Source: a virus (Duplodnaviria > Caudoviricetes). From it: a stretch of 58,335 nt of DNA. The notes under the pieces are model-generated. The model had not been told where the DNA came from, made no database searches, and saw nothing but the letters and a program-made list of their open reading frames with translations. Location of the stretch: positions 1-58,335 of IMG/VR virus record IMGVR_UViG_3300048578_000131; one strand, 5' to 3'. This document shows, piece by piece, positions 27,440 through 28,873 of the stretch; positions within the stretch are counted from its first letter, which is position 1; every line of letters begins with the position of its first letter. The position numbers and the translations under genes were made by a program.

Positions 27440-28032
27440 CGGTAGATCATCACCTGCCGGGTCAAGGCATCGACACCGAACGGGATATCGGTCATCGCCT
27501 CTTTTGCGGCCGCTTCCCGGTTCGCATACCAGTGCGCCGCCAGCATCAGGATCGCAGGTACGACCTGCCGCGGCAGAACGAGCTCGGGATCGTCACCCGA
27601 TCCGGTCGCGCCATCGATATCGAATCCGGCGTCAATATCGATCTGCACTGCATCGTCCCGGCCGGAAGCGAGCGCTGGCAGGCTCACATTCGCATCAATC
27701 ACCAGCGTCGCGCCTGTCGCATGCCGGCGCCATCGATATGCTGCCGCATCAAGGGCCTGCAGATCGCCATTCGCATCGAGAAAGCGCACCGCAACGATAT
27801 CGCGGACCGGCGCGACCAAAATCTGCAGGTCTCGGCACCAGCCGGGCATTTCGATACGGTAGCCGACCGGCGCCAGAACGAGTTCGCAACGCTTTCCGAC
27901 ATAGGCGGTCGCAGCATCGAGAAAGATTTTCAGCTTCTCGTCATCGTCCAAGAAGTCCGCAGCCTCGACATGGCGCTTAAGCTCCATGAGCGAGACGGGC
28001 TGTTGAGTTGCCGCAGTGACGAGCCTCAGCAT
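27436..28032 (-). CDS. Head-tail connector protein
   Basis: PVSLMELKRHV, AILMLAAHWYANRE, IPFGVDAL. Confidence 0.9.
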   Translation of the reverse strand: MLRLVTAATQQPVSLMELKRHVEAADFLDDDEKLKIFLDAATAYVGKRCELVLAPVGYRIEMPGWCRDLQILVAPVRDIVAVRFLDANGDLQALDAAAYRWRRHATGATLVIDANVSLPALASGRDDAVQIDIDAGFDIDGATGSGDDPELVLPRQVVPAILMLAAHWYANREAAAKEAMTDIPFGVDALTRQVMIYR

Positions 28033-28673
28033 TCCAGCGCCTGGGCGAACGTCATCTTCGGATAGGCGGTCAACGTCGAGACCGGAGACGCGTTGATCAC
28101 GCAGACGCCGTAGCGTGCGAGCACGGCCGCAGCATGGTCGAGAGCGGACCGCCATCCCGGCATGTTCGCCTCCCGCGGATTATTGAGACGCTCGCCATGA
28201 CGGCCATGCCAGTGCACGCCGTAATCAACCCGCATGTCAAAGCCCACCATGATGATCTTGGCCGCACCGAATTGCGCCGCGAGATTCAGCGCCTGAAACC
28301 CGGAATTCCCGCCTCCGGTCCGAGAGCCGGCGCCGACCTTGCCGGGCTCGGTCATCACAAGCTTTTCACTCTGTCGCACAACCTCGACCTTGCTCAATCC
28401 GAAATCGATACAGGCCTGCGCATCAGCGCTCAGCCTCAATCCAGCAAACTCGGCACCCGGTCTGCGGTGCTTCCACCACGCCCCGTCGCATCCATAGACC
28501 GCGTCCGCCCAGCAGACGCCGCCTTCTGTCGCGAGTTGCCAGGATTCGTTGACGCAGAGGACGCGCGATCGGCCTCTCGCTGATCCGAGATCGCATTGCG
28601 CGGCGCTTGGTCCGCTGGCGACGATGACGGCGGTGTCCCCGCGCCAGTCTCGCCACCACGTGAAACGAAAGGG
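28026..28673 (-). CDS. Glycosyltransferase-like (Maf/DUF115-type) domain, probably reached by a -1 frameshift
   Basis: Open frame lacking a start codon for VIVASGPS...VLCVN...YGCDGAWW; then NSGFQALNLA, IIMVGFDM, VINAS. Confidence 0.75.
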   Translation of the reverse strand, partial: PFRFTWWRDWRGDTAVIVASGPSAAQCDLGSARGRSRVLCVNESWQLATEGGVCWADAVYGCDGAWWKHRRPGAEFAGLRLSADAQACIDFGLSKVEVVRQSEKLVMTEPGKVGAGSRTGGGNSGFQALNLAAQFGAAKIIMVGFDMRVDYGVHWHGRHGERLNNPREANMPGWRSALDHAAAVLARYGVCVINASPVSTLTAYPKMTFAQALEC

Positions 28674-28873
28674 CCGCGAGCAGCCGCCTCGTTGGAAAGG
28701 AACTGTGCCGGCGCTTCGGGCGGACGCACAACACGCACGGCGAGCCCCATCCGCTCCAGATCGCGCGCGCGATACTCATCGCCGACCCTGAACTCCCGCC
28801 CGCGGCGGACGCGATTGCGCTCGCCCTCACCCGGGCGACCGTTGAACGATTTCAGTGCCTGCATTGGAATCAT
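28436..28873 (-). CDS. Small capsid-adjacent protein (0-frame product)
   Basis: GGAGG RBS; RARDLERMGLA; low-complexity Ser/Ala tail after the slippery site C CCT TTC (28673-28667). Confidence 0.75.
   Translation of the reverse strand: MIPMQALKSFNGRPGEGERNRVRRGREFRVGDEYRARDLERMGLAVRVVRPPEAPAQFLSNEAAARGPFVSRGGETGAGTPPSSSPADQAPRNAISDQREADRASSASTNPGNSRQKAASAGRTRSMDATGRGGSTADRVPSLLD

Follow-up and report, generated by a model that had tools for sequence, protein, structure and literature searches.

How is an enzyme produced when the reading frame that encodes it offers no start codon ahead of its conserved domain? This question is raised by a locus in IMGVR_UViG_3300048578_000131, a 58,335-nt stretch of viral DNA that is referred to here as the window. 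The locus lies wholly on the minus strand, to which all coordinates below refer, and belongs to a phage head module. In frame 0, an open reading frame (ORF) of 145 codons plus stop (28873-28436, stop codon at 28438-28436) begins with an ATG (28873-28871) placed 10 nt behind the Shine-Dalgarno (SD) sequence AGGAGG (28889-28884). This ORF encodes a folded N-terminal module of approximately 48 residues (28873-28730; three strands, a helix, and a strand), a linker, and a tail. Between linker and tail lies a heptamer of the slippery X XXY YYZ type, C CCT TTC (28673-28667), which is read in frame 0 as GGC CCT TTC (G P F). From the heptamer on, the −1 frame encodes an MptE-like/sialyltransferase-like domain (28673-28026, stop included; ..RPFRFTWWRDWRGDTAVIVASGPS..).

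The initial annotation of this stretch had proposed a probable −1 ribosomal frameshift at this position, and the sequence observations behind that proposal were confirmed. The heptamer is in frame within the ORF that starts at 28873, and frame 0 becomes low-complexity 3' of it; the resulting "GGxTG..SSS" tail recurs among relatives because it is the conserved enzyme motif WWPDWRG..IVASGPS read out of frame. The −1-frame stop that had been placed near 28777 is the TGA at 28778-28776, the last one 5' of the heptamer and the 5' limit of the interval in which a shift is permitted. From there the −1 frame is open for 249 codons to a stop at 28028-28026, and, as had been claimed, it contains no ATG, GTG, or TTG before the TTG at 28439. 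A match to PHROG 4603 covered residues 52 to 248 of this open stretch and profile positions 1 to 174 of 178 (E = 6.6e-41), and the match to the family hidden Markov model (HMM) began at residue 39; the enzyme domain therefore begins at the heptamer, approximately 75 codons 5' of the first possible start codon. The 145-residue frame-0 sequence was identical to a protein of the public collection (P0143). Together with the comparative evidence that follows, these features make it very probable that a programmed −1 ribosomal frameshift yields a module-enzyme fusion, for which a trans-frame product of 69 + 213 = 282 amino acids is predicted.

To collect homologous loci, an alignment of the enzyme domain was used, which retrieved 80 viral and 73 genomic loci (153 in total), compared with a single locus from a single-protein scan. 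The segments between successive stop codons of each locus were analyzed with HMMs of the enzyme and of the module, and 152 loci, the window included, had a good enzyme match. The module was found upstream, with the enzyme in its −1 frame, in 67 of these 152 loci, and in 58 of the 67 the enzyme frame held no ATG, GTG, or TTG before the domain. The +1 layout was never seen (0/152), and the same-frame layout was seen once (L028). The remaining 84 loci had no module, and 80 of them had an own start for the enzyme. Among 48 module ORFs examined, 47 started with ATG and 1 with TTG, most of them behind a GGAG-like SD sequence. The −1 layout (65 loci) occurred in phages and prophages of Alphaproteobacteria, Gammaproteobacteria, and Omnitrophota. 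Cultured lysogens that carry it include Paracoccus denitrificans DSM 413 (L103), Nitratireductor indicus C115 (L087), Ensifer sp. MPMI2T (L093), and Mesorhizobium jarvisii LMG 28313 (L111).

Fused and stand-alone forms of the enzyme also exist. Database searches returned 704 homologues at E ≤ 1e-3, most of them stand-alone proteins of 200 to 230 amino acids and some with an N-terminal extension like the frame-0 N-terminus of the window. In-frame module-enzyme fusions were present among these database proteins (P0044, P0075, P0020, P0098, P0006, P0115, P0008, and P0056), and L028 carries this capsid-module-enzyme cassette in a naturally in-frame form, reading CCG CTT TAC GAA where its frameshift relatives have C CCT ACG / CCC TAC GAA. 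Because such fusions exist in nature, the module-enzyme fusion is taken to be the functional product. The initial annotation had held that single in-frame homologues, or homologues with a start codon of their own, would refute a frameshift. Taken literally, the own-start loci, the one fused locus, and the fused database proteins are of exactly this kind; they are, however, alternative architectures of one family, and the frameshift reading is not refuted by them.

Conservation of the slippery site, which had been named as a check, was next assessed in the 65 loci with the module no more than 150 codons from the enzyme domain, corresponding to 59 distinct sequences. The search was confined to the permitted interval, i.e., 3' of both the module and the last −1-frame stop and 5' of the enzyme domain. 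An in-phase C_CCT was present there in 48 of the 59 sequences (50 sites in 1462 codon positions), whereas the other two phases of the same intervals held 0 and 1 sites and the upstream module region held 2 in 2351 positions. CCT is the rarest proline codon in these genes (53/483). Full heptamers accounted for 21 of the 48 sites (CCCTTTC in 9, including the window, CCCTTTG in 5, CCCTTTT in 4, and CCCTTTA in 3); at the other 27, C_CCT was followed by ACN, TCN, ATN, CCG, CGN, and similar codons, and some of these sites form the 3' half of an A AAC CCT or G GGC CCT heptamer. Six of the 11 sequences without C_CCT carried other heptamers: C CCA AAG in two (L075 and L111), and A AAA AAG (L076), A AAA AAC (L123), G GGA AAA (L139), and G GGA AAC in one each. 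Counted together, C_CCT or another heptamer was present in 54 of 59 sequences; any in-phase X XXY YYZ was found in 36, versus 3 and 4 out of phase. According to the accessible part of Sharma et al. (PMC4066793), C_CC.U_UU.C is a high-level frameshifter in Escherichia coli, and C_CCY is one of six tetramers active with a pseudoknot.

The position of −1-frame stops narrows the site of the shift further. In 12 of the 48 sites, a −1-frame stop lies 2 to 5 codons 5' of the motif. In Tetraselmis viridis virus S20, a deposited genome, the −1 frame runs TGA TGA TGA TGA CCC TTT.. and frame 0 runs ..GAT GAT GAT GAC CCT TTG..; as four TGA codons abut CCC TTT, a shift is possible only on that heptamer. 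The S20 record (NC_020840, 2091-3247) annotates the locus as a 188-residue "hypothetical protein" and a truncated "alpha-2,3-sialyltransferase" starting from an internal codon, and judging from its sequence it would need a joined coding sequence at C CCT TTG.

Substitution patterns pointed to the same position. In DNA alignments of the window with six relatives, differences 5' of the heptamer peaked at frame-0 third positions (e.g., 22, 23, and 38 versus L002), while differences 3' of it peaked at −1-frame third positions (e.g., 48, 89, and 69). This pattern shows that the selected frame switches from 0 to −1 at the heptamer and that both frames are under purifying selection. In a FastTree phylogeny of the 152 enzyme domains, the frameshift layout appeared on both sides of the deepest split, and 13 changes between the frameshift and own-start layouts sufficed, against a mean of approximately 49 with shuffled labels. 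The spread over the tree and the small number of changes indicate that the layout was retained over long divergence, with several losses or gains. The −1 frameshift of the initial annotation is thereby supported by a layout common to 67 of 152 loci, by the absence of +1 cases, and by a motif conserved in phase.

In the mechanism that we propose, ribosomes would start at the ATG at 28873 and translate the module and the linker, and a fraction of them would slip one base back at C CCU UUC, with peptidyl-tRNA-Pro leaving CCU to pair with CCC and tRNA-Phe exchanging UUC for UUU. The next codon after the slip would be CGT, and the −1 frame would then be read through the complete enzyme to give the fusion, with an expected mass of approximately 31 kDa and ..GPF|RFTWW.. 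as the predicted junction. Ribosomes that do not slip would make the 145-residue protein of approximately 15 kDa, i.e., the module with a meaningless tail. Most ribosomes would be expected to make this free module and a minority the fusion, in keeping with the abundant short protein and minor fusion first suggested for the locus. The module would act as a capsid-binding adaptor of the kind seen in the C-domain of lambda gpFI, and the slip would keep the enzyme-carrying form at a low and fixed ratio to the free adaptor, in the manner of G/GT or Gag-Pol. By docking on the capsid protein, the module would bring the enzyme to it, probably for sugar modification of the capsid protein.

Three other explanations were weighed against a programmed ribosomal frameshift. 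The locus could be a broken gene, i.e., an in-frame fusion disrupted by the loss of 1 nt or by an error in sequencing or assembly, so that the enzyme is not made; the in-frame fusions found in nature, both among database proteins and at L028, speak for this. The same break would, however, have to recur in all 67 loci, which come from independent assemblies, always in the −1 and never in the +1 direction, and to fall at a conserved in-phase C_CCT, with both frames under purifying selection, whereas random breakage would give both directions and not persist. Two deposited isolates, S20 and SI1, also match the enzyme stretch alike, although the layout was read in S20 only. We consider a broken gene very unlikely. 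Even less credit is due to the idea that two separate proteins are made, the enzyme starting independently at the TTG at 28439, at some non-canonical codon close to the heptamer, or through re-initiation. Gene callers do give a 137-residue ORF from TTG 28439 (P0001), the same is true of an 81%-identical relative (P0002), and the 80 own-start loci show that independent initiation occurs in the family. Initiation at 28439, on the other hand, would cost the enzyme approximately 75 conserved residues, among them the invariant G-P of its nucleotide-binding SGPS motif; 58 loci of the −1 layout have no ATG, GTG, or TTG in the enzyme frame; and a start would not fit where −1-frame stops lie within 0 to 5 codons of the motif. 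The only near-cognate codon in the permitted interval of the window is a single ACG without an SD sequence.

Other forms of recoding might also produce the same fusion, for example if transcription slipped at CCCTTT or if the ribosome shifted by +2 or made a short hop. The outcome would be identical, and sequence alone cannot separate these routes from a −1 shift. Slippage by bacterial RNA polymerase needs longer runs of A or T, and the runs of identical bases at this site are only three long. Moreover, in both phase and form the motif corresponds exactly to ribosomal sites of the X XXY YYZ or Z_ZZN type, and other lineages substitute other classic ribosomal heptamers. Such a route is accordingly regarded as very unlikely. 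Overall, to judge from the reading frames, the enzyme appears to have no production route other than the frameshift.

Several observations weigh against a programmed frameshift. Five of the 59 −1 sequences (L026, L074, L109, L133, and L150) had neither an in-phase C_CCT nor an X XXY YYZ heptamer in the permitted interval. Three of these (L074, L109, and L133) also lack a start in the enzyme frame, and L074 and L109 have in common a stretch conserved in both frames (Y-x-R-R-D-M / A-P-R-Y). At the 27 tetramer sites, the codon after C_CCU is non-slippery, and the accessible part of the E. coli study gives such tetramers a frameshift level of 0.26 to 5.6%, even with a pseudoknot (PMC4066793). The frame-0 ORF of the window continues for 78 codons past the site, which is longer than in classic cassettes, and the shift in GC content at third codon positions within the window is weak. 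The module HMM was trained on −1 loci, so that detection of same-frame and +1 layouts is possibly biased, although the frame assignment itself is independent of the training. Finally, no family-wide stimulator was detected by folding: downstream folding energies were alike in 57 frameshift and 71 own-start loci (P = 0.67), and after GC correction downstream folding was slightly weaker in the frameshift loci. The mean folding z score 3' of the site was −0.48, against −0.17 in control segments, and much of the downstream pairing arises because codons of the conserved DWRG and VAS motifs are complementary.

Within the window, candidate stimulators lie on both sides of the heptamer. Downstream, a hairpin (28658-28616) has a main stem that starts 8 nt 3' of the heptamer and outer pairs from 3 nt; folding of 28666-28610 gave −28.2 kcal/mol (z = −2.38), a value equaled by 5 of 200 shuffled sequences, and the hairpin is a candidate for the window only. 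Upstream, a GAGG (28690-28687) located 13 nt 5' of the heptamer is a candidate weak internal SD-like stimulator; the same spacing occurred in 3 of 48 sites, the window included. In 14 of the 48 sites, a GGAGG, mostly within GGAGGCGGCC and read as E-A-A, stands exactly 22 nt 5' of C_CCT. It could belong to the linker as a protein motif, or it could act as a signal in the RNA; 22 nt is too far for a classical SD effect.

Another RNA feature precedes the module ORF. A perfect 9-bp GC hairpin (GGGCCCGGC / GCCGGGCCC, 6-nt loop; 28920-28897), followed by ATTTTG to 28891, sits between the capsid stop codon and the SD sequence that precedes the module. As a possible leaky terminator, it may reduce expression 3' of the capsid gene; a terminator scan reported one site, at chance level. 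An Rfam search gave no frameshift element, and its sub-threshold hit, with the isrO 3' end (28.4 bits; threshold, 42), fell on this hairpin after the capsid gene.

The nature of the enzyme was examined from its sequence and a predicted structure, with module and enzyme modeled as separate chains. PHROG 4603 is labeled "alpha-2,3-sialyltransferase." The Pfam match to MptE-like (PF01973) stayed below the cut-off (20.8 bits versus 34.6), and sequence searches returned no solved relative (best E = 1.2, noise). The enzyme model reached a pLDDT of 95.2, and its nearest solved folds were the flagellin glycosyltransferase Maf (5mu5, Z = 14.8), the sialyltransferases Cst-I (Z = 12.9) and CstII (Z approximately 12, within a range of 11 to 13 for the Cst-I/CstII structures), the MptE pyrophosphokinase (HPPK, Z = 11.5), and SteA (Z approximately 11), ahead of the next unrelated fold at Z = 4.8; the Foldseek E value for CstII was 6.8e-5. 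Thus, the initial description of the product as glycosyltransferase-like is supported by the fold. The −1-frame domain has a single Rossmann-like fold in common with the GT42 enzymes Cst-I and CstII, Maf, and MptE, but only 12 to 16% sequence identity. Invariant residues of the family include H155-W156-H157 and G22-P23. A sugar-nucleotide transferase, possibly for nonulosonic acid, is our best guess from the modeled fold, though only a guess. A stand-alone homologue, ORF010 of Pseudomonas phage PAJU2 (AP009624, 7780-8349), lies just after a putative head-tail adaptor gene and is labeled "structural protein" in its record.

The N-terminal module was modeled with a pLDDT of approximately 90 over residues 1 to 50. 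The window's own module gave PHROG 2616 at an E value of only 0.045 and nothing in Pfam; it is 20 to 51% identical to its aligned relatives, of which 31 of 39 matched PHROG 2616 and 13 of 39 matched Pfam DUF7302. When the module profile was searched against the Protein Data Bank, the N-domain of ribosomal protein L9 was retrieved (E = 0.0024 to 0.0076). By structure, this likeness reached a TM score of 0.60 to 0.65 and a root mean square deviation (rmsd) of 1.8 to 1.9 Å, with Pfam PF01281 in 1 of 39 members (E = 0.055). The fold ranking placed the GINS B-domain (Z = 5.5 to 6.0) ahead of the C-domain of lambda gpFI (4.8) and the L9 N-domain (4.5 to 4.8), low Z scores being expected for 48 residues, and the top Foldseek row was the Bacillus subtilis prophage protein YqbF. 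L9 restrains frame slippage, and by this likeness the free module might act on ribosomes itself; we give this low odds, and the capsid co-fold described below argues for another target.

Among these folds, that of gpFI comes from a protein whose gene has the same position, with the capsid gene E on one side and the head-tail joining gene FII on the other. Its C-domain (PDB 2LSM) superimposed on the module with an rmsd of 1.8 Å over 44 residues (25% identity; Foldseek TM 0.61). The sequence likeness is weak (hhalign probability of 38.6% to residues 104 to 130), with Pfam Packaging_FI in 1 of 39 module members (E = 0.0043) and PHROG 92 in 1 of 39 (E = 4e-4), and it falls short of established homology. 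In addition, gpFI carries this fold C-terminally, whereas here it is N-terminal, and gpFI has neither an enzyme nor a frameshift. A role of gpFI as a bridge from the capsid to the terminase-DNA complex has been described (PMC13595911).

The module occurs well beyond this enzyme. Its profile matched 1423 cluster representatives at E ≤ 1e-3, and the best 150 of these were mostly 49 to 147 amino acids long, many of them small stand-alone proteins; at least 47 of the best 150 bore the out-of-frame tail signature of the frameshift loci. One protein has four tandem copies of the module (P0182, DUF7210), and others in the set noted (P0182, P0202, P0221, P0245, and P0159) have varied C-terminal parts, e.g., short helix-rich segments or GGGWYE repeats. 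Given its tandem copies and varied C-terminal partners, the module behaves as a mobile adaptor domain. In P0246, the module forms an in-frame fusion with a GT2 glycosyltransferase (PF00535, E = 3.1e-16) that is unrelated to the present enzyme.

A link between the module and the capsid was suggested by gene order and by structure prediction. A capsid gene of the window's type stood directly upstream in 56 of 65 frameshift loci versus 2 of 82 own-start loci, as counted by phmmer, which detects capsids of the window's family only. A co-fold of module residues 1 to 52 with capsid protein residues 195 to 471 scored 0.73, against 0.00 for the best control. Scores of this level were obtained for 116 of 157 solved complexes and for 2 of 215 mismatched pairs; as the co-fold was run with our own alignments, this calibration is approximate. 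The co-fold runs agreed in at least 97% of contacts, with a partner pLDDT of at least 84, and the contact loop predicted for the module comprises residues 8 to 12. These predictions support, but do not show, binding of the module to the capsid protein. Tethering of the enzyme to the capsid, which the initial annotation had raised as a possibility, thereby gains computational support.

The surrounding genes are those of a head module. In order, the portal gene (32548-31283) comes first, followed by a ClpP-like protease (31286-30396) between the portal and capsid genes, and by the gene of the HK97-type major capsid protein (30365-28950; PHROG 10, E = 1.6e-88; Pfam Phage_capsid, E = 2.6e-62), directly upstream of the module ORF. 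Downstream of the enzyme lies a head-tail adaptor gene (ATG at 28032, to 27436; PHROG 442, E = 2.5e-17; Pfam Phage_connect_1), whose ATG (28032-28030) overlaps the enzyme stop TGA (28028-28026) in ATGCTGA (28032-28026). The head-tail adaptor may be translationally coupled to the enzyme; if so, adaptor synthesis would depend partly on frameshifted ribosomes. Directly after it, a gene for a 744-residue multidomain protein (27439-25205) was found, with a match to PHROG 6804 (residues 22 to 299) and a C-terminal methyltransferase domain. This protein gave no Pfam match in residues 1 to 560 and is not related to the enzyme. Searched with a language model, it fell near viral GT9 glycosyltransferases of the "Aah/TibC family" (score 0.95, a lead only). 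In S20, another member of the enzyme family is encoded downstream of the locus, along with a glycosyltransferase and a methyltransferase. The 744-residue neighbor, the downstream genes of S20, and the "structural protein" label in PAJU2 together hint at enzymatic modification of the head. Glycosylation of virions has precedent in mycobacteriophages.

As a tentative extension, which we think possible but rather less likely than the alternative that it is wrong, the module would be a general capsid-docking adaptor of tailed phages, and a Gag-Pol-like frameshift would load a small, fixed fraction of it with the enzyme. The enzyme would thus reach the capsid protein or procapsid and, with its GT9-like/methyltransferase neighbor, would decorate the head with a modified sugar. 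If this is true, the loci, together with the fusion of the adaptor to an unrelated GT2 enzyme in other phages, would represent an undescribed modular system of enzymatic capsid modification in which recoding sets the dose. Irrespective of that function, the frameshift, if true, would be a second widely conserved one in tailed phages beside G/GT. It would correct a systematic annotation error, as the enzyme is now called as a truncated ORF of 137 to 160 amino acids or with a false N-terminus. The loci would also provide natural material on the use of C_CCU_UUN and of bare C_CCU, apparently without a dedicated downstream structure, and on how enzymes reach phage capsids.

To our knowledge, conserved programmed frameshifts in tailed phages are few, and the tail chaperone pair G/GT is the textbook case. 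A literature search found no paper linking a frameshift to the present gene family, and the accessible portion of the PRFect paper names no such family. Overall, we conclude that the proposed mechanism is of a known kind and that its description for this gene family is, as far as we found, new. In lambda G/GT, a −1 slip likewise occurs near the end of a small structural ORF, and the short product and the fusion have the same N-terminal binding part. From lineage to lineage, G/GT keeps its layout, but its sequence and the heptamer itself differ (PMC5009743). G/GT differs in involving other genes, those of the tail, whereas the present cassette lies in the head module after the capsid gene and its cargo is an enzyme domain; moreover, the frame-0 continuation here is a meaningless and variable tail of 17 to 95 codons.

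Two further groups of known systems bear on the cassette. In retroviral and totiviral Gag-Pol, frameshifting attaches an enzyme to some of the molecules of a capsid-directed protein, by which the ratio is fixed (PMC5009743). The present cassette follows the same logic, but its N-terminal part is a 48-residue module predicted to bind the capsid rather than the capsid protein itself. Head-module recoding that gives two products per gene is described for T7 10A/10B, T3, Lactobacillus phage A2, and Listeria phages (PMC5009743). In those cases the shift extends the major capsid protein, whereas here a separate gene downstream of the capsid gene would be extended by an enzyme of 213 residues.

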